This document shows, piece by piece, positions 26,672 to 35,313 of a stretch of 64,000 nt of DNA. The stretch is from Escherichia coli. Lineage in GTDB: Bacteria > Pseudomonadota > Gammaproteobacteria > Enterobacterales > Enterobacteriaceae. Numbering within the stretch: position 1 is the first letter of the stretch; the number at the start of each line of letters is the position of its first letter. The notes below the pieces were generated by a model, which had not been told where the DNA came from, did not search any database, and worked only from the letters and a program-made list of their open reading frames with translations. The position numbers were made by a program, and so were the translations under genes. The stretch lies in NCBI RefSeq assembly GCF_013122565.1, contig NZ_CP053258.1. One strand, 5' to 3'.

Positions 26672-27559
26672 ATGGATGCAAAACAAACGCGGCAGGGCGT
26701 ATTACTCGCTCTTGCCGCTTATTTTATTTGGGGTATTGCGCCAGCGTACTTCAAGCTGATTTACTACGTGCCCGCCGATGAGATCCTGACGCATCGCGTG
26801 ATCTGGTCGTTTTTCTTTATGGTGGTGCTGATGAGCATTTGCCGCCAGTGGTCCTATTTAAAAACGCTGATTCAGACGCCACAGAAAATTTTTATGCTGG
26901 CAGTCTCTGCCGTGCTGATTGGTGGCAACTGGCTACTGTTTATCTGGGCGGTGAACAATCACCATATGCTGGAAGCGAGCCTTGGTTACTTTATTAACCC
27001 GCTGGTGAACATTGTGCTGGGGATGATTTTCCTCGGCGAGCGATTCCGCCGGATGCAATGGCTGGCGGTGATTCTGGCGATATGTGGCGTGTTGGTCCAG
27101 CTGTGGACTTTTGGTTCGCTACCTATTATCGCGCTGGGGCTGGCATTTAGTTTTGCCTTCTACGGCCTGGTGCGCAAGAAGATTGCGGTAGAAGCACAAA
27201 CCGGCATGTTAATTGAAACCATGTGGCTGCTGCCCGTGGCAGCGATTTACCTGTTTGCTATTGCCGACAGCTCAACCAGCCATATGGGGCAAAACCCGAT
27301 GTCGCTGAATTTACTGCTGATCGCCGCCGGTATTGTCACTACCGTACCGCTGTTGTGTTTTACTGCAGCTGCGACACGCCTGCGTCTCTCAACGTTAGGC
27401 TTTTTCCAGTATATTGGCCCGACGCTGATGTTTCTGCTGGCTGTGACGTTTTATGGTGAAAAACCGGGTGCCGATAAGATGGTGACTTTCGCCTTTATTT
27501 GGGTGGCGCTGGCAATTTTTGTGATGGATGCGATTTATACGCAGCGTAGAAAAAGTTAG
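26672..27559 (+). CDS. rarD: EamA/DMT-family transporter RarD
   Basis: 295 aa, 10-TM RarD sequence. Confidence 0.92.
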   Translation: MDAKQTRQGVLLALAAYFIWGIAPAYFKLIYYVPADEILTHRVIWSFFFMVVLMSICRQWSYLKTLIQTPQKIFMLAVSAVLIGGNWLLFIWAVNNHHMLEASLGYFINPLVNIVLGMIFLGERFRRMQWLAVILAICGVLVQLWTFGSLPIIALGLAFSFAFYGLVRKKIAVEAQTGMLIETMWLLPVAAIYLFAIADSSTSHMGQNPMSLNLLLIAAGIVTTVPLLCFTAAATRLRLSTLGFFQYIGPTLMFLLAVTFYGEKPGADKMVTFAFIWVALAIFVMDAIYTQRRKS

Positions 27560-27605
27560 GCATTAACATGGGTAGGCCATTTAAAAAGCCTACCCACTGA
27601 CTTAT

Positions 27606-27923
27606 CTATCTTTTTTTGAAAAAAATTAAGATAAGAAAAAGTACGATATTTGTTACAGGAAATACACCCAAAACTCCCCAGTACTTACTCCATCCTAGAG
27701 ACATTGTATATCTACCAAGGATTTGACAAAACCCAAAACTTAACCCTATACCTATACTTCTTAAATTTAATGTCGTAGTCAGGCTTAAAATAAATAGAAC
27801 AAGGATGGTAATAGCCCACCACAATAACCACGCCTTAACAAAATCAGATTTTTTGCTGTAAGGTTCTTTACCCAAGAACAACTGCCAAAAATTACCATTT
27901 TCCATATAGAAACCATTCACCAA
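27606..27923 (-). CDS. yigG: Small inner-membrane protein
   Basis: 105-aa ORF with 2-3 predicted TM helices in a markedly AT-rich islet; position matches yigG; start codon uncertain. Confidence 0.5.
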   Translation of the reverse strand: MVNGFYMENGNFWQLFLGKEPYSKKSDFVKAWLLWWAITILVLFILSLTTTLNLRSIGIGLSFGFCQILGRYTMSLGWSKYWGVLGVFPVTNIVLFLILIFFKKR

Positions 27924-28109
27924 AAGTATTATTCATGGAAACAAATATTATTTAATTATATTTAGTCCCCCTCAATAAAAACTTACACACTCTAAATTAC
28001 TACTGTATAGTTATCAATACAAAGGCTGTCATATTGCATGGATATAACAAGCATATGCTCTAAATAATGTATATACACTTAAACCAATCATATACTAAAC
28101 AATATAAAA

Positions 28110-28496
28110 ATGTTTAAACCATCTATTAAAAATATGTTTTACCCATCCACACTTGAGCGTTTATCACGTTTGCAGTTCATAATTTACACATTAATATCAT
28201 GGACAATATTAATAACTTTGAATGATATCAACCTGGCTTTGAGTTTCATTCTGGTCATCACTAATACGTATGTGAATATCAATATCGGAGCTAAAAGAAT
28301 AAGAGATACTGGATGTAAGGCAATCTACTTCGTATTGATTTCATTGGGTTTGACACTTTTTTCTATTATCTCTGCAGCAATTGAAGGGGTGAGATGTGAT
28401 TCATTAAGCGTCCAACTGAACGTGGCATGGATAGTATTCACAACAATTATGTTATCTGCGATTCCCTCGGCTAAAATGTCGCTGTCAGCACACTAA
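28110..28496 (+). CDS. yigF: Small inner-membrane protein
   Basis: 128-aa ORF, hydrophobic, AT-rich; divergent from yigG; position matches yigF. Confidence 0.55.
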   Translation: MFKPSIKNMFYPSTLERLSRLQFIIYTLISWTILITLNDINLALSFILVITNTYVNINIGAKRIRDTGCKAIYFVLISLGLTLFSIISAAIEGVRCDSLSVQLNVAWIVFTTIMLSAIPSAKMSLSAH

Positions 28497-28520
28497 CTTA
28501 CTCACAGCGACATCGTATAG

Positions 28521-29471
28521 TTACAGCCAGTTCTTCCGCTTAAAGTACAGATACGGTGCCAGGCCCGCGAGGATCATAAAGATAATCGCGCCTGGGTAGC
28601 CGAAGCTCCACTTCAGTTCTGGCATAAACTCAAAGTTCATCCCGTAGCTGGAAGCAACCAGCGTTGGCGGCAGGAACACGACGGATACCACCGAGAAAAT
28701 TTTGATGATGCGGTTCTGCTCGATGTTGATAAAACCCATTGCCGCCTGCATCAGGAAGTTCACCTTCTGGAACAGGGATTCGTTATGCGGCAGCAGGGAT
28801 TCGATATCTCGCAGGATTTCACGCGCCTGCTCCAGTTGACCACCCGGTAAACGCGCCTTACGCACCAGGAAGTTGAGCGCACGCTGGGTATCCATCAGAC
28901 ACAGGCGCACTTTCCAGCCGATATCTTCCAGTTCCGCCAGCGTGGAGAGCGCCTCGTCGTACTCATCGCCCTGATGCCCTTCCATAATCACCCGACTCAA
29001 CTGCTCCAGGTCGCTATAGATATTTTCAATTTCATCTGCCAACTGTTCGATTTTGGTTTCGAACAGATCCAGCAGCAGCTCGTAGGCGTTACCGTCTACC
29101 ATCGACTGGCTACGAGCACGCATACGATACAGACGAAAAGCGGGCAGTTCACGCTCACGCAGAGTAAACAGACGACCATCACGGATGGTAAATGCCACAG
29201 TGGAGTTACCGGCGTGATCTTCCGCATCTTCAAAGAAGAAGAAGGAGTGAATATGCAGGCCGTCGTCGTCTTCAAAGAAACGTGCCGATGCTTCGATGTC
29301 TTCCAGTTCCGGGCGGGTTGCCAGGCTCTGGCCAAGTTCAGATTGTACGCGCAGTCGCTCGTCGTCGTCCGGTTCGACAAGATCAATCCATACTGCATTT
29401 ACAAGGGGTTGTGACTCTTCGACTTCCAGCCGGGTCAGTCGGTTATTTTCCAGTTGAAATGCGCTCAGCAT
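28521..29471 (-). CDS. corA: Magnesium/cobalt/nickel transporter CorA
   Basis: Trimmed to [17 protein letters not shown], 316 aa; C-terminal GMNF motif. Confidence 0.95.
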
Positions 29472-29840
29472 GACCGGGACTCCCAATGCTTAAAATATCG
29501 GACAGTTCGGTGGGCACACAGAAACAAATTGGGTTTCAGACCATTAAACAGCCTGACTCAGCGCGACGGGAAAAATTGAGGTCGCTGACAACCGCTAAGG
29601 CTATCAGCAAAAAGGGATAGCCTTAGGAGTTGATCCTGGATGACAGGATAGTGAGCCAGTATCTACTGGGTGTGTCCAAGGCGAATGTCCTCTTAGAGTG
29701 ATCGTGCGCGCATGTTACGCCAGCAAAATTTTGCCGTCAACACGCAACAGAACACCACAGAACAATAGTTGAACTTCGCGCTTTTTGGTACTCGTCAAGG
29801 TCGCTAACAGGATAAAAAAATCCCACATCCAGGACCTATA

Positions 29841-30605
29841 ATGGCGCATCGGCTACTCATTGGTAAAGGAATGATCACCTTGAATCTCAAACGGATTTTT
29901 CTCGCCCTCACCTTACTTCCCTTGTTTGCTGTTGCCGCTGATGATTGCGCACTCTCAGATCCGACGCTGACCGTACAGGCGTATACCGTTAATCCTCAAA
30001 CAGAGCGGGTGAAAATGTACTGGCAAAAAGCCAATGGCGAAGCGTGGGGAACGTTACATGCTCTGCTGGCGGAGATGAATAGTCAGGGTCAGGTGCAGAT
30101 GGTGATGAACGGCGGCATCTATGATGAAAGCTATGCGCCACTCGGTTTGTACATCGAAAACGGTCAGCAGAAGGTGGCGTTAAATCTCGCTTCAGGTGAA
30201 GGGAATTTCTTTATCCGTCCTGGCGGCGTGTTTTATGTCGCGGGAGATAAAGTCGGCATCGTTCGTCTGGATGCCTTTAAAACCAGTAAAGAGATTCAGT
30301 TTGCGGTGCAGTCAGGGCCAATGTTGATGGAAAACGGCGTAATTAATCCGCGTATTCATCCCAACGTCGCCTCACGCAAAATTCGTAACGGTGTTGGGAT
30401 TAATAAACATGGGAACGCCGTGTTTTTGTTGAGCCAGCAGGCGACAAATTTTTATGATTTTGCCTGTTATGCCAAAGCGAAACTGAACGTTGAGCAGTTG
30501 CTTTACCTTGATGGCACGATTTCACATATGTATGTGAAAGGAGGCGAGATCCCCTGGCAGCGTCATCCTTTTGTCACCATGATTGCCGTCGAGCGGAAAG
30601 GTTAG
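29841..30605 (+). CDS. yigE: Uncharacterised secreted protein YigE
   Basis: 254 aa with N-terminal signal peptide (LLPLFAVAADD). Confidence 0.8.
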   Translation: MAHRLLIGKGMITLNLKRIFLALTLLPLFAVAADDCALSDPTLTVQAYTVNPQTERVKMYWQKANGEAWGTLHALLAEMNSQGQVQMVMNGGIYDESYAPLGLYIENGQQKVALNLASGEGNFFIRPGGVFYVAGDKVGIVRLDAFKTSKEIQFAVQSGPMLMENGVINPRIHPNVASRKIRNGVGINKHGNAVFLLSQQATNFYDFACYAKAKLNVEQLLYLDGTISHMYVKGGEIPWQRHPFVTMIAVERKG

Positions 30606-30640
30606 AATGATAGTTTTGTGTCAGATACTAAATATGGTGC

Positions 30641-30750
30641 TGATGCCGGATGCGACGTAAACGCCTTATCCGGCCTACATGACGTTGCAATTTATTGAAT
30701 CTGAATGATTTTTAGGCCAAATAAGGTGTGCAGCACCGCATCCGGCAACG
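30641..30750. repeat. Composite REP element with central IHF-like site (RIP/BIME type) between yigE and uvrD
   Basis: Inverted gccggatgcg...cgccttatccggcctac arms flanking tgcaatttattgaat. Confidence 0.75.
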
Positions 30751-32913
30751 TTACACCGCCTCCAGCCGGGCGTAAGCCGCCACCAGCCATTTGATTCCCT
30801 GGCCCTGGAATGCCACCTGCAAACGGCTATGTTCACCGCTGCCTTCCATATTGACGATGGTGCCTTCACCAAACTTAGCGTGGCGTACGCGCTGGCCGAG
30901 CTTGTAGCCGCTGTCGTTCTCGACCATCGGCGTACCCATACGCTGATGGCTGACCGGGCGGCTTACCGTAGCGCGTAAACGCACCTCTTCCACACACTCT
31001 TCCGGCAGCTCGCCGATAAAGCGCGACGGGCGATGGTAAACCTCTTTACCATACAGACGGCGAGTTTCCGCGTAGGTCAGCGTCAGTTTCTGCATCGCGC
31101 GGGTTACGCCAACGTAGGCCAGACGGCGTTCTTCTTCCAGACGTCCGCCTTCATCCAGCGACATCTGGCTTGGGAACATGCCCTCTTCCATACCGACAAT
31201 AAACACCTGCGGAAACTCCAGACCTTTCGCCGAGTGTAGCGTCATCAACTGCACCGCATCCTGCCAGGTATCCGCCTGCCCTTCACCTGCTTCCAGCGCC
31301 GCATGGGAGAGGAACGCCTGCAGCGGCATTAAATCTTCGTCTTCTTCGTTGTAGCTGAACTGGCGCGTTGCCGTCACCAGTTCCTCTAAGTTTTCGATAC
31401 GCGTCTGACCTTTTTCGCCCTTCTCCTGCTCGTACATGGTGCGCAGGCCGGAGTCTTTAATTACCCGGTCAGTCTGTACATGCAGCGGCATATCGGCAGT
31501 TTCCTGCGCTAAGGCGTCGATTAATTCCATAAACCGCTGTAAGGCGCTGGCAGCACGTCCGGCGAGGGCTTTTTCCTGCAACAGTTCACGACATGCCTGC
31601 CAGAGTGTTAACTGGCGATCGCGCGATGTCTGACGTACCACGTCCAGCGTCCGGTCACCAATACCCCGCGTTGGCGTATTCACCACACGCTCAAACGCCG
31701 CGTCATCATTACGGTTGGCAATCAGGCGCAGATACGAGAGCGCATCTTTGATTTCCTGGCGTTCGAAGAAGCGCATCCCGCCGTAAATACGGTACGGCAT
31801 ACTCGCCTGCAACAGTGCCTCTTCCAGCACACGCGACTGGGCGTTGCTGCGGTAGAGAATGGCGCACTCGGCAAGCGCCCCGCCGTTGTCCTGCCAGGTT
31901 TTGATGCGGTTAACCACAAAACGCGCTTCGTCGAGTTCGTTAAAAGCGCAATAGAGGGAAATAGGCTCACCGTCCGCGCCATCGGTCCACAATTTTTTAC
32001 CCAGACGCCCGTTGTTGTTTTCAATGAGGGCGTTCGCGGCGCTCAGAATATTGCTGGTAGAGCGGTAGTTCTGCTCCAGACGGATAGTTTCAGCACCGGG
32101 GAAATCATTGAGGAAACGCTGAATATTCTCGACCTGCGCCCCGCGCCAGCCGTAGATTGATTGATCGTCATCGCCAACGATCATCACTTTGCCGGTGTCG
32201 CCCGCCAGCAGGCGGATCCACGCGTACTGAATGTTGTTGGTATCCTGGAATTCGTCCACCAGGATGTTGGTAAAACGTTCGCGGTAGTGTTGCAGGATAT
32301 GCGGCTTGTTAAGCCACAACTCGTGAGCGCGCAGCAGCAGCTCGGCGAAGTCCACCAGGCCCGCACGATCGCACGCTTCCTGATACGCCTGATACACTTT
32401 CTGCCAGGTCTGCTCCACCGGATTACCGTAGCTTTGAATATGATGCGGACGCAGGCCTTCATCTTTCTGGCTGTTGATGTACCACATTGCCTGGCGCGGC
32501 GGCCACTGCTTCTCGTCGAGGTTCATGGCTTTGATCAGACGCTTAAGCAGGCGTAGCTGGTCTTCACTGTCGAGGATCTGGAAATCCTGCGGCAGATTGG
32601 CGTCCATATGGTGCGCACGCAGCAAACGGTGCGCCAGCCCGTGGAAGGTGCCGACCCACATGCCGCCCTGGCTGGTGCCCATCAGTTGCCCGATACGATG
32701 ACGCATCTCCGCCGCCGCTTTGTTGGTAAACGTCACAGCCATAATCGAGTAAGGCGAGCAGTTTTCCACGCTCATCAGCCAGGCGATACGATGCACCAGT
32801 ACGCGCGTCTTACCACTGCCCGCGCCCGCCAGCACCAGAAGGTTGCTGCGTGGCGCGGCCACCGCTTCGCGCTGTTTGTCATTAAGGCTATCGAGCAGGT
32901 AAGAAACGTCCAT
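30751..32913 (-). CDS. uvrD: DNA helicase II (UvrD)
   Basis: Track ORF extends to 33102; trimmed to MDVSYLLDSLNDKQREAVAAP for 720 aa; Walker A GAGSGKT. Confidence 0.95.
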   Translation of the reverse strand: MDVSYLLDSLNDKQREAVAAPRSNLLVLAGAGSGKTRVLVHRIAWLMSVENCSPYSIMAVTFTNKAAAEMRHRIGQLMGTSQGGMWVGTFHGLAHRLLRAHHMDANLPQDFQILDSEDQLRLLKRLIKAMNLDEKQWPPRQAMWYINSQKDEGLRPHHIQSYGNPVEQTWQKVYQAYQEACDRAGLVDFAELLLRAHELWLNKPHILQHYRERFTNILVDEFQDTNNIQYAWIRLLAGDTGKVMIVGDDDQSIYGWRGAQVENIQRFLNDFPGAETIRLEQNYRSTSNILSAANALIENNNGRLGKKLWTDGADGEPISLYCAFNELDEARFVVNRIKTWQDNGGALAECAILYRSNAQSRVLEEALLQASMPYRIYGGMRFFERQEIKDALSYLRLIANRNDDAAFERVVNTPTRGIGDRTLDVVRQTSRDRQLTLWQACRELLQEKALAGRAASALQRFMELIDALAQETADMPLHVQTDRVIKDSGLRTMYEQEKGEKGQTRIENLEELVTATRQFSYNEEDEDLMPLQAFLSHAALEAGEGQADTWQDAVQLMTLHSAKGLEFPQVFIVGMEEGMFPSQMSLDEGGRLEEERRLAYVGVTRAMQKLTLTYAETRRLYGKEVYHRPSRFIGELPEECVEEVRLRATVSRPVSHQRMGTPMVENDSGYKLGQRVRHAKFGEGTIVNMEGSGEHSRLQVAFQGQGIKWLVAAYARLEAV

Positions 32914-32971
32914 TGGCACCGCCGCGTAAAAATAGGTTGGGCGGAGAAGCGCAACGCCCTCCGCCAAAAAG

Positions 32972-32987
32972 CTGGGTATATATACAG
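32972..32987. promoter_or_regulatory. LexA (SOS) box upstream of uvrD
   Basis: ctgggtatatatacag fits CTG-N10-CAG, ~60 nt upstream of the uvrD start. Confidence 0.7.
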
Positions 32988-32996
32988 ATTTGCTGA

Positions 32997-33713
32997 TTAT
33001 ATCAGCGAGGTCAGAGATGCCAACCGGGAAATTTCCAGATGCGGCAGTAAACGGCTGTCCCAGGTTTGCATCAGATCGCCATTTTCCGGTCTGATCCAAC
33101 AAGCCTGCATTCCGCTGCGAATTGCCCCACCCACGTCAGTGGTGAGATCGTCCCCAACATGTAAGATCTCGCCGATCGGCACGTTGAGTTTTTCCGCAGC
33201 CAAAAAGTACATATCGCTGAACGGTTTTGAGCGCCCGTGCGGGCCAGCGCGCAGCACAAACTCAAAATAATCCCCCAAACCAAACAGTTCCGGCTGGGCG
33301 TTACCGTTGGTGATCGCCACCAGCGGCCATTTCTTCGCCAGCTGTTTTAAGGTGTCGTGGGTTTGCTGCGGGACATCGATCCGGCTGCGCCATTTGGCAA
33401 AGTTGATCATTGCTGCGTGTGCGCCTGCACTGGCTTCTTCGGCACTCAGCCCGGCGTCGAGCATCGCTTGTTCTATTGAGCGAAAACGCCAGCGCGTCAC
33501 GTCGTGATAAATCTCGGGTTCCGCTTCCCGTACCGCCTGGCGCAGACGTTGCAGATCTTCATTCTGGAAGCTGCGCAGCGCCGGATGATAATTTTGCACA
33601 AAGGTAAGCGCCTCTCGCTCGGTGCGCAAAATCACCGGACGGTTATCGTAAAGGGTATCATCCAGGTCAAAGGTGAGCGCCGAGATGCGCCCCAAAGGCC
33701 GGTAAAAACGCAT
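32997..33713 (-). CDS. yigB: HAD-family phosphatase (5-amino-6-ribitylaminouracil phosphate / FMN phosphatase)
   Basis: 238 aa, [12 protein letters not shown] motif. Confidence 0.9.
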
Positions 33714-34609
33714 TATTTCCCCCGTTTGGCGCGTGGATGCGCCGCATCGTACACCGAGGCAAGGTGTTGAAAATCAAGATGAGTATAGATTTGCGTGGTA
33801 GAGAGGTTGGCATGACCCAGCAGCTCCTGCACACCACGAAGATCGCCGCTCGACTCCAGCATATGCGTAGCGAACGAGTGACGTAATTTATGCGGGTGAA
33901 CGTGATTATTCAGCCCTTGTTTTATGCCCCATTCGGCAAAGCGTTTCTGCACATTACGCGCGGAGATACGCTTGCCCAGTTTCGACAGAAAAAGCGCGTC
34001 GTCTTCGCTACCAAACAGGTCGCGCAAATCAAGCCAGTGCTCAATCCACGCCACAGCGTTGCGACCAATCGGCAGGCGGCGCTCTTTGCTGCCTTTCCCC
34101 ATTACCCACACTTCACCAGACTCCAGGTCGAGGTGTTTGATATCCAGCCCCACCAGTTCGGACAGACGCAGACCCGCGCCGTACATCACTTCCAGCATTG
34201 CACGGTCGCGCACAGCAAGGGGATCGTTGATATCAATATCCAGCAGCCGATTCATATCGTCGACGTCGATATTTTTCGGCAGATGACGCGGCGCTTTCGG
34301 TGCCGAAACACCTTTCGCCGGGTTAGCTTTGAGTTCGTTCTGGCTGACCAGCCAGTCAAAAAAGCTACGTAGCGCAGAAAGCCGTAACGCCAGACTTGCT
34401 GCTCCCAGCCCTTTACGGCGACTGCGTACAGCAAAATTGCGCACCATCGTCACATCACATTGTTGCCAGCTTTGCAGGCCGTTTTCGCTGGCAAAATTAA
34501 TGATCGCCTCAAGCTGACGCTGGTAGTTAAGCAGGGTTATCGGGCTCAGCTGGCGCTCCACGCTCAGATAACGTAGGTAGCGTTCTACATCGGTGTGTAA
34601 ATCGGTCAT
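33713..34609 (-). CDS. xerC: Tyrosine site-specific recombinase XerC (chromosome dimer resolution)
   Basis: 298 aa, [24 protein letters not shown]-terminal catalytic RHxxR...Y. Confidence 0.95.
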
Positions 34610-35313
34610 ACGCGTTCAATCCAACGCTCCAGAAGCTCCGGCAACATCAGCGCAATTTTATGAAGTAACTGCGTTCCCTGCCCTTGTTGATAGTGACTGG
34701 CATCGCGACTGGTAAACAGCACAACACCCAAATCAGCATCGCTTCCCAGCATCGACATCGCCACCGATCCCACCGCTTTCGCTTCAGGTAGCACCACCAG
34801 CAGCTCCGGTCCGTTAAGCGGCCCAAGATAGTGCTGTTCCTGCCCCAGACGCTGAATACGCAGCGGTTCGAAAGACTGACGGCTTAATGCCAGATGAGTG
34901 TGGTTCGACGGCGCACCTAAGCGCCAGCGATCCGGAAACAGGCGCAGACTCGCACCAGCCAGGCCGAGATCGCGCGCCCAGCGGTGAAAGCGCATCAGCA
35001 TATCGTCGAGACTGCTGGCGGCGGTGAGACTGCGCTGCAGGTAGAGTAGGCGATAAAACAGGCCTTCGTTGGCGATAGCCTGTTCCATCAACAGCGCCAT
35101 GTTCTCTTCCAGAACATGAATATGGTTACGCGCGCGAGCCATATGCCATTCGACCAACGAAACGGTGCCGCGTACCGGATGCGGCACACGTATCGCTTCT
35201 ACTGCGCGCGCATTGCGGATAAAAAACTCAGGATTTTTAATCAGATAATCGACAACCGCCCGGTCATCGAGCTCCGTGAGTGTTTCCTGCAGTTCTTCCC
35301 CTGGTTGCTTCAT
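34606..35313 (-). CDS. yigA: DUF484-family protein YigA
   Basis: 235 aa; overlaps xerC and dapF by 4 nt each. Confidence 0.85.

Follow-up and report, generated by a model that had tools for sequence, protein, structure and literature searches.

An AT-rich two-gene islet between rarD and corA

The subject of this analysis is an islet of AT-rich DNA (positions 27560–28520) in a 64,000-nucleotide stretch of Escherichia coli DNA (contig NZ_CP053258.1; hereafter the window), where it lies at the point at which the 3′ ends of rarD and corA converge and carries two divergent open reading frames (ORFs) for small membrane proteins, which we term ORF99 and ORF128. As developed below, the islet is probably one allele, type B, of a strain-variable cassette, and it is not the yigG–yigF pair found at this site in K-12. 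The gene order is yigI (+), rarD (+, 26672–27559), the islet and corA (−, 28521–29471). Measured in 961-bp sliding windows over the whole 64 kb, the GC content of the islet is 0.330 vs. a mean of 0.524 (standard deviation (SD) 0.035), i.e. ~5.5 SD below the mean and 19 points under the flanks, and the islet is the sole stretch of the 64 kb under 0.40. The same bias is seen at third codon positions (GC of 0.32 in the minus-strand ORF and 0.37 in ORF128; 0.61 and 0.62 in rarD and corA), in the frequency of A/T-only tracts of six or more nucleotides (26 per kb vs. 7.9) and in TpA density (111 per kb vs. 43). An earlier reading of the letters alone (the sequence-only reading) had noticed an AT-rich kilobase here, and the windowed calculation bears this out, with a GC content well outside the normal range.

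That reading had also described two divergent small hydrophobic proteins of 105 and 128 residues, separated by a very AT-rich spacer of ~190 bp. Both ORFs are indeed present, and their products proved hydrophobic when checked: three transmembrane helices are predicted for the minus-strand product and four for the plus-strand one. The spacer measures 186–204 bp at 25.5% GC. ORF128 occupies positions 28110–28496 on the plus strand. The minus-strand ORF spans 27606–27923 in its longest form in the ORF list (105 aa, TTG start), and the caution voiced about start codons was justified for this gene, which has three candidate starts: ATG 27905 (99 aa), GTG 27920 (104 aa) and TTG 27923 (105 aa). The ATG is the choice of the Prokaryotic Genome Annotation Pipeline (PGAP) in relatives, where the product is annotated as a hypothetical protein, and defines ORF99 (27606–27905, minus strand). 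In the alignment with Pseudocitrobacter, GTG 27920 falls on an ATG, and the residues N-G-F-Y that separate this GTG from the annotated ATG are partly conserved; the true product may be the 104-residue form starting at GTG 27920.

The islet differs from the K-12 yigG–yigF pair

By position, the two ORFs had been matched to yigG and yigF, an assignment that does not hold. At K-12-type junctions (b3818–b3817 in K-12), yigG and yigF encode 126 residues each, are separated by 13 bp, are both co-directional with rarD and have no DNA similarity to the islet. In a pairwise blastn comparison with a K-12-type genome only the flanks align. Since similarity ends at 27551, within rarD, and resumes exactly at 28521, the whole intergenic block has been replaced. 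This block thus includes the last codons of rarD, from about 27552 (an EamA-family transporter gene, 295 aa), and has the stop codon of corA (316 aa) as its right-hand limit; the RarD C-terminus reads QRRKS in the window allele, QRRTSK in K-12-type alleles and is QRRTRLGN-like at empty sites. With positions 27400–28700 as megablast query, full-length matches were obtained in 1,430 of 5,426 complete E. coli genomes, whereas K-12-like genomes match the flanks only (26% of the query). The two islets share the rarD/corA junction and the gene-end boundaries, and the K-12 islet, at about 0.9 kb and about 34% GC, also encodes a YigG-family protein and a second small membrane protein. The layouts are different, however. 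The K-12 genes are co-directional and those of the window divergent, yigG adjoins rarD whereas the YigG-like gene of the window (ORF128) adjoins corA, and the partner of YigG is YigF (DUF2628) in K-12 and the orphan ORF99 in the window. Naming the genes by position therefore goes wrong for both, as the corA-adjacent 128-residue ORF resembles YigG and not YigF, and the minus-strand ORF resembles neither.

Both ORFs behave as protein-coding genes

To compare cassette copies we used five loci (loci are denoted by L numbers): the window, SCU-172 (L001, 96% nucleotide identity to the window), O157:H7 (L002, 92%), a more distant Escherichia-type genome (L005) and Pseudocitrobacter corydidari (L008). 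The counterparts of ORF128 lie at 2211–2597 of L001 and 2222–2608 of L002. Both reading frames are intact in all five copies. Ratios of nonsynonymous to synonymous divergence (dN/dS, Nei–Gojobori) are 0.14–0.36 for ORF128 and 0.05–0.21 for ORF99, except for a value of 0.78 between L001 and L002 that rests on a near-identical pair with only four substitutions. Relative to Pseudocitrobacter, synonymous sites are saturated, and protein identity is still 62% for ORF99 and 46% for ORF128. Given the intact frames, the low dN/dS and the protein identity kept despite synonymous saturation, we consider both ORFs to be real protein-coding genes under purifying selection. Their annotation is uneven: in the RefSeq genomes of L001 and L002, PGAP calls a 99-residue hypothetical protein for the minus-strand gene and no coding sequence at ORF128. 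A large protein collection contains full-length copies of ORF128, none of them named, and the gene has probably been missed systematically in most of the ~1,400 complete E. coli genomes with the cassette.

ORF128 is a divergent YigG-family protein and ORF99 an orphan

ORF128 aligns over its full length with K-12 YigG (BLASTP, 27% identity over 123 aa, E 4e-5); against YigF, neither ORF128 nor ORF99 shows similarity (BLASTP, E 1.4–1.5). The NCBIfam YigG equivalog model NF008474 (PRK11371) matches residues 8–119 of ORF128 at 30.6 bits (E 2.9e-7), which falls short of the 217-bit cut-off for equivalog membership; K-12 YigG scores 255.6 bits and the yigG allele of 79% identity 210.4 bits. When 13 YigG-position proteins from eight genera are aligned, R20, R63, R65, D66 and G68 are invariant, and ORF128 has the invariant N-terminal arginine together with the loop motif N-x-N-[AC]-x-R-x-R-D-x-G. 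By tblastn it is also tied to the genes that Phytobacter, Kosakonia and Mangrovibacter have in the YigG position. With full-length homology and the conserved motifs, ORF128 thus qualifies for the YigG family in the broad sense. A profile search returned 80 relatives, of which all those with an organism name are from Enterobacteriaceae, and some sources label such proteins DUF805.

A Pfam scan of both ORFs gave nothing above threshold. The DUF805 model (PF05656) matches ORF128 at 14.7 bits (E 0.044) and K-12 YigG at 17.3 bits (E 0.0069), and 11 of the 13 YigG-family members match it at E ≤ 0.1 (best E 2e-4), all sub-threshold. ORF128 is similar to Pfam DUF805 proteins (small inner-membrane proteins of the YhaH/YhaI type) in size, in helix layout and in its arginine-containing N-terminal segment before the first helix, and the basic R-x-R-D-x-G-type loop of the YigG family is comparable. 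The counterpart of this loop in DUF805 is RRLHD-like; the SGWW segment that typifies DUF805 was not seen in the YigG family. The resemblance of the YigG family to DUF805 is thus suggestive, at scores under the Pfam criterion for membership. These comparisons identify ORF128 as a divergent YigG-family, DUF805-like membrane protein, and the distribution of lysine and arginine would, by the positive-inside rule, give it an N-in/C-in topology with the conserved basic loop in the cytoplasm.

ORF99, for its part, has no DUF805 match in Pfam, and only close relatives were found in a collection of 5.8 billion proteins; among 1.84 billion cluster representatives, 18 match at E ≤ 0.001. Two remote relatives have near-full-length but sub-threshold DUF805 matches, one (P0050, the best) at 22.8 bits (E 1.3e-4) and the other at E 0.031. 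The context of the remote relatives P0047 and P0050 consists of short metagenomic contigs and was uninformative. We therefore describe ORF99 as a small membrane protein of a tiny orphan family, whose likeness to DUF805 goes no further than a hint. The by-eye idea that ORF99 and ORF128 are demonstrable paralogues was dropped, as family comparisons with hhalign gave no significant result. Membership of DUF2628, the YigF family, has no Pfam, BLASTP or profile support for either ORF. AlphaFold2 models have a predicted local distance difference test (pLDDT) score of 81.8 for ORF128, with four long helices, and of 78.6 for ORF99, with three helices; a Foldseek search of both models against the PDB gave nothing below E = 2. 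A literature search for functional studies of DUF805 found none. For YigG itself, the sole phenotypes on record come from Salmonella yigG mutants, which were reported to show reduced attachment and reduced growth under chlorine (PMC3579871).

The rarD–corA junction has several states in E. coli

To assess how widespread the cassette is, interior probes were compared with the 5,426 complete E. coli genomes. The window cassette (type B) is present in 1,429 of them, about a quarter, including O157:H7, O26 and O111 strains among others. The yigG–yigF cassette (type A) is present in 2,962, including about 554 with a sub-allele that is only 79% identical. Uniform conservation, which would have argued against the sequence-only reading, is thus not what the census shows; the distribution is patchy. 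A third component, detected in 2,627 genomes, is a DUF3289 + DUF943 module, for which there is experimental support as a colicin-M-like type VI effector with its immunity protein (Geller et al. 2024, PMC11148199). Its place is downstream of either cassette, type A or type B, and ahead of it stands a 147-nt copy that duplicates the corA 3′ end (loci L011 1952–3621, L009 2410–4078, L005 4412–6086 and L004 1627–2969), and in O157:H7-type strains it lies immediately downstream of the type B cassette. It can also stand alone beside a yigG fragment, and this fragment marks the stand-alone module as a deletion derivative. The module shares the rarD–corA junction with the cassettes and has no sequence relationship to ORF99 or ORF128; tblastn of the DUF3289 and DUF943 proteins against the whole window gave nothing. 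In the window, type B directly abuts an intact corA without the module. With a probe specific for this junction, 51 genomes pass 80% coverage and 23 of these have the full type B–corA junction, while in the others (28 by subtraction, of which 22 are listed) the match starts at query base 69. Type B directly abutting corA is a rare arrangement.

A deletion-scar allele, present in about 28 complete genomes, is exemplified by E. coli MP1 (L096 2546–2673), one of the genomes whose probe match starts at base 69. It has a clean 834-bp deletion corresponding to window positions 27614–28447, with both genes gone, both end hairpins (see below) kept and the deletion junction at a short TTATCT repeat. 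In strain SCPM-O-B-8794, labelled E. coli, the junction is empty, with 55 bp and a single hairpin between rarD and corA, and RarD keeps the long end QRRTRLGN that other genera show at empty sites (L013 5949–6006). In a few genomes (H31, H61, H62 and H78), the insertion sequence IS1 interrupts the yigG–yigF or the type B cassette.

Distribution beyond E. coli

We then classified the DNA between rarD and corA in 80 Enterobacterales loci anchored on CorA, locating rarD in each. In most genera the two genes are only 50–130 bp apart, with a single hairpin and normal GC content; such empty junctions were seen in Citrobacter, Enterobacter, Klebsiella, Kluyvera, Cedecea, Trabulsiella, Yersinia, Erwinia, Hafnia, Atlantibacter hermannii and Pseudocitrobacter faecalis, among others. 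Given this small gap in most genera, the islet is an accessory insertion into a compact junction. A pair of YigF and YigG-family genes, as an insert of 0.9–1.1 kb with 34–46% GC, is present in Escherichia sp. E1V33, Phytobacter, Atlantibacter subterranea, Superficieibacter, Pseudescherichia, Kosakonia, Mangrovibacter and one strain labelled Enterobacter sp., and the E. albertii contig stops just past a yigF that belongs to the divergent sub-allele. Published work on Salmonella reports that Typhimurium has yigG and that Enteritidis lacks it (PMC3579871). Serratia, Pectobacterium, Pantoea and others have an unrelated insert of 1.1–1.9 kb with normal GC content. Type B was seen only in E. coli-type genomes and in Pseudocitrobacter corydidari, and in none of 80 other sampled Enterobacterales loci. 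The P. corydidari locus, corA–(127 aa)–(98 aa)–rarD (CP087880.1), matches the window in both gene families, in the divergent layout and in the junction, but its spacer cannot be aligned with that of the window, and P. faecalis of the same genus has an empty site. Judged from these comparisons, the rarD–corA junction is ancestrally compact, with a cassette whose presence varies even within genera.

The cassette appears old at its locus

The sequence-only reading had proposed horizontally acquired DNA. The strong AT bias, the patchy distribution and the insertion into a compact junction are consistent with this; a recent acquisition, on the other hand, is not supported, and marks of mobility are lacking. 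There is no ORF for an integrase or transposase, and neither bracketing direct repeats nor a tRNA were found. The only hits of a tblastn search of plasmids were chromosomes wrongly labelled as plasmids (1.0 and 4.8 Mb). In PHROGs, no family of phage proteins is matched by either product, a search that covered the proteins and not the DNA, which was not compared with a phage genome collection. By such marks the islet does not classify as an integrative island or mobile element. Synonymous divergence (dS) from the window is informative here. For L001 it is 0.12 and 0.11 in rarD and corA and 0.09 and 0.10 in ORF99 and ORF128. The corresponding values are 0.06 and 0.07 vs. 0.10 and 0.24 for L002, and 0.26 and 0.25 vs. 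0.14 and 0.56 for L005; for Pseudocitrobacter they are about 1.0 and 0.86 in the flanking genes and saturated in both cassette genes. Synonymous divergence of the cassette thus tracks that of the flanks, out to another genus. This pattern fits an old resident allele that would have been inherited with its flanks and often lost, rather than a recent mobile-element insertion.

End hairpins, promoter-like sites and possible H-NS silencing

Both ends of the cassette carry stable hairpins, so that each cassette brings the 3′ end structures for its neighbours. The left-end hairpin (GGGTAGGCC...GCCTACCC; 27569–27598, inverted repeat I2) lies between the convergent ends of rarD and ORF99, with folding energies of −16 kcal/mol on the plus strand (z −3.9) and −20.3 kcal/mol on the minus strand (z −4.7). 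It is specific to type B and kept in the deletion-scar allele. The right-end hairpin (28476–28513, inverted repeat I1; −15.5 and −23.2 kcal/mol, z about −3.9) overlaps the ORF128 stop codon and is followed on the corA strand by UUUU, and is therefore likely to be a corA terminator supplied by the cassette. A simple terminator scan passed over both hairpins, whose U-tracts are absent or displaced, and it was folding that established them. An Rfam scan of positions 27000–30000 (E ≤ 1) gave two chance-level hits, both outside the islet.

The divergent spacer (27906–28109) contains overlapping promoter-like hexamer pairs on both strands, for example a plus-strand −10 element TATAGT at 28006–28011 and a minus-strand −10 element TAGAGT at 27994–27989. 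Of the 22 sigma-70-like promoter matches that a scan of 20 kb around the islet gave, 11 cluster in 330 bp (27947–28276), and in the 1.3-kb region the 11 matches compare with 4.8 ± 1.9 in shuffles. These counts come from a simple consensus scan and not from PlatProm; a promoter island is defined by promoter-like sites at abnormally high density across 300 bp or more (Panyukov and Ozoline 2013). The K-12 allele of the rarD–corA site is a published promoter island (PMC3661553), its yigG holds an H-NS-repressed intragenic promoter (PMC7229825), and it forms a small extended protein occupancy domain (PMC8282354). Of the marks of an H-NS-silenced xenogeneic islet, it has an AT content well above the genome average and a patchy phylogenetic distribution. 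By analogy with the K-12 allele, and from its composition and promoter-like cluster, type B is likely to be silenced by H-NS as well. We also considered conservation of the spacer as evidence for regulatory elements and dropped it, as the spacer is conserved only among the closer E. coli alleles and not in Pseudocitrobacter. Just upstream of ORF128 there is a 27-nt direct repeat (28060–28086 and 28095–28121; 74% identity, 35-nt spacing), the second copy of which spans the ORF128 ATG; in AT-rich DNA this may be chance.

A strain-variable cassette as the best explanation

Taken together, the islet is most likely the type B allele of an AT-rich cassette of two genes that varies between strains and occupies the junction at which the 3′ ends of rarD and corA converge. 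The type B block spans the sequence from the last rarD codons to the corA stop and carries its own hairpins for both neighbours. In E. coli it alternates with the non-homologous yigG–yigF cassette and a deletion scar, and in many strains it adjoins the DUF3289/DUF943 module. The alleles may be exchanged between lineages via homologous recombination in the conserved flanks and not by a site-specific element, with the cassette being old at the locus and frequently lost. Like the K-12 allele, type B would be bound by H-NS and largely silenced, with many spurious promoter-like sites. As a speculation, both proteins could, when expressed, insert into the inner membrane and alter envelope or surface properties or stress tolerance, a role suggested by analogy with the attachment and chlorine phenotypes of the Salmonella yigG mutants.

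Several observations weigh against this interpretation. No recognisable Shine–Dalgarno sequence was found ahead of either gene when the sequence was read directly. The scar allele and the many empty sites mean that the cassette genes are dispensable. The H-NS high-affinity 10-mer TCGATAAATT is absent from the islet at up to two mismatches, vs. 1.06 per kb elsewhere. The DUF805 gathering threshold of 25.7 bits is reached by no family member scanned, and hhalign detects no significant relationship of the ORF99 family to the YigG and YigF families (probabilities against the YigF family are 0.4% for the ORF99 family and 2.9% for the YigG family). Finally, Salmonella YigG is only distantly related to ORF128, which limits the phenotype analogy.

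Other explanations account less well for these data. That the islet is the ordinary K-12 yigG–yigF pair, with orthologues at the expected positions, is practically untenable: the junction is shared, and total length (about 0.9–1.0 kb), AT content and protein sizes are similar, but gene orientation differs and the identity is refuted by the flank-only blastn alignment, with no nucleotide similarity inside the block, by the NF008474 scores, which K-12 YigG passes and ORF128 misses by a wide margin, and by the lack of any YigF/DUF2628 homologue in the window. The region might instead be only a spacer or promoter island, its open frames having arisen by chance in AT-rich non-coding sequence or being pseudogenes in decay. 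PGAP leaving ORF128 uncalled in the two genomes inspected, the missing Shine–Dalgarno sequences, the lack of an above-threshold Pfam match and the dispensability shown by scar alleles would all agree with this. Against it stand the frames intact in five divergent copies, dN/dS of 0.05–0.36 in all pairs but one, the protein identity that survives synonymous saturation, motifs kept in 13 YigG-family members from eight genera and confident AlphaFold2 models, and we consider it very unlikely. Similarly improbable is a recent insertion by a mobile element, whether a phage remnant, an integrative island or an IS-mediated event. The 19-point GC deficit and the IS1 copies that interrupt the region in a few genomes could point that way, yet the islet is without integrase, transposase, tRNA or bracketing direct repeats, has no true plasmid match and no phage protein family match for either protein, and occupies the same site in another genus with a divergence that scales with the flanks.

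A different possibility is that these are orphan protective genes under frequency-dependent selection, conferring immunity to membrane-acting toxins (type VI effectors, colicins or microcins) or phage exclusion. The rarD–corA junction would then be a long-lived balanced polymorphism of small inner-membrane 'protective' proteins, a YigG-like one plus a variable partner (YigF or ORF99). The size and the three to four membrane helices resemble those of immunity proteins to pore-forming colicins. A single locus holds several alleles that are non-homologous or highly diverged, both within E. coli and across genera, and ORF128 dS is 2–4 times that of the flanks relative to two of the three E. coli-type copies (L002 and L005). 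Moreover, about half of E. coli genomes have the experimentally supported effector–immunity pair DUF3289/DUF943 (PMC11148199) as a direct neighbour. However, there is no toxin gene paired with either ORF in the window, PADLOC and PHROGs scans of all six cassette proteins gave nothing usable, dN/dS values far under 1 give no sign of diversifying selection, alleles reduced to a scar or empty are common, and the published Salmonella yigG work concerned attachment and chlorine tolerance, not immunity. We therefore regard both the protective function and the balanced polymorphism as unlikely. If true, the latter would explain why non-homologous cassettes, a scar and an effector–immunity pair co-occur at one site, and a protective role would be the first function for the YigG branch of DUF805-like proteins. 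Even less probable is a toxin–antitoxin-like module, in which one hydrophobic membrane toxin would have the divergent gene or an antisense RNA as antidote. That the products are small and hydrophobic, that the layout is divergent and that silencing is probably tight are in line with such a module; however, type I toxins are far smaller than these products of 99–128 aa and three to four membrane helices, there is no Rfam match, and other genera pair the YigG-family gene with YigF in a co-directional layout. The scar allele loses both genes at once and is uninformative on this point.

As a kind of feature the cassette is ordinary, AT-rich variable islets at convergent gene ends being common in enterobacteria. 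Type B is an alternative allele of a known kind of AT-rich, probably H-NS-silenced accessory islet, with different genes, a different layout and one unannotated gene. Annotation by position misnames these genes, and ORF128 is conserved and selected, yet uncalled in the RefSeq genomes inspected. Two unrelated AT-rich cassettes in one chromosomal context offer a natural comparison of whether composition by itself brings about H-NS silencing and promoter-island behaviour, and the several natural alleles, a clean natural deletion and an adjacent toxin–immunity module provide a practical base for phenotype screens.

Flanking variation

The nearest allele to the window cassette in a complete genome is only 96% identical, and the uvrD–xerC–yigB–yigA flank (window 30700–34700) is at best 98.3% identical to any of the 5,426 genomes; given these values, the lineage of the window is unrepresented among them. 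The yigE–uvrD interval is also variable. In the window (29841–30720) it contains yigE followed by a palindrome resembling repetitive extragenic palindromic (REP) elements. Elsewhere a gene of the S-adenosylmethionine (SAM) hydrolase/halogenase family is added in some genomes (L004 4325–6074), and MP1 has this gene but no yigE (L096 4088–4990).

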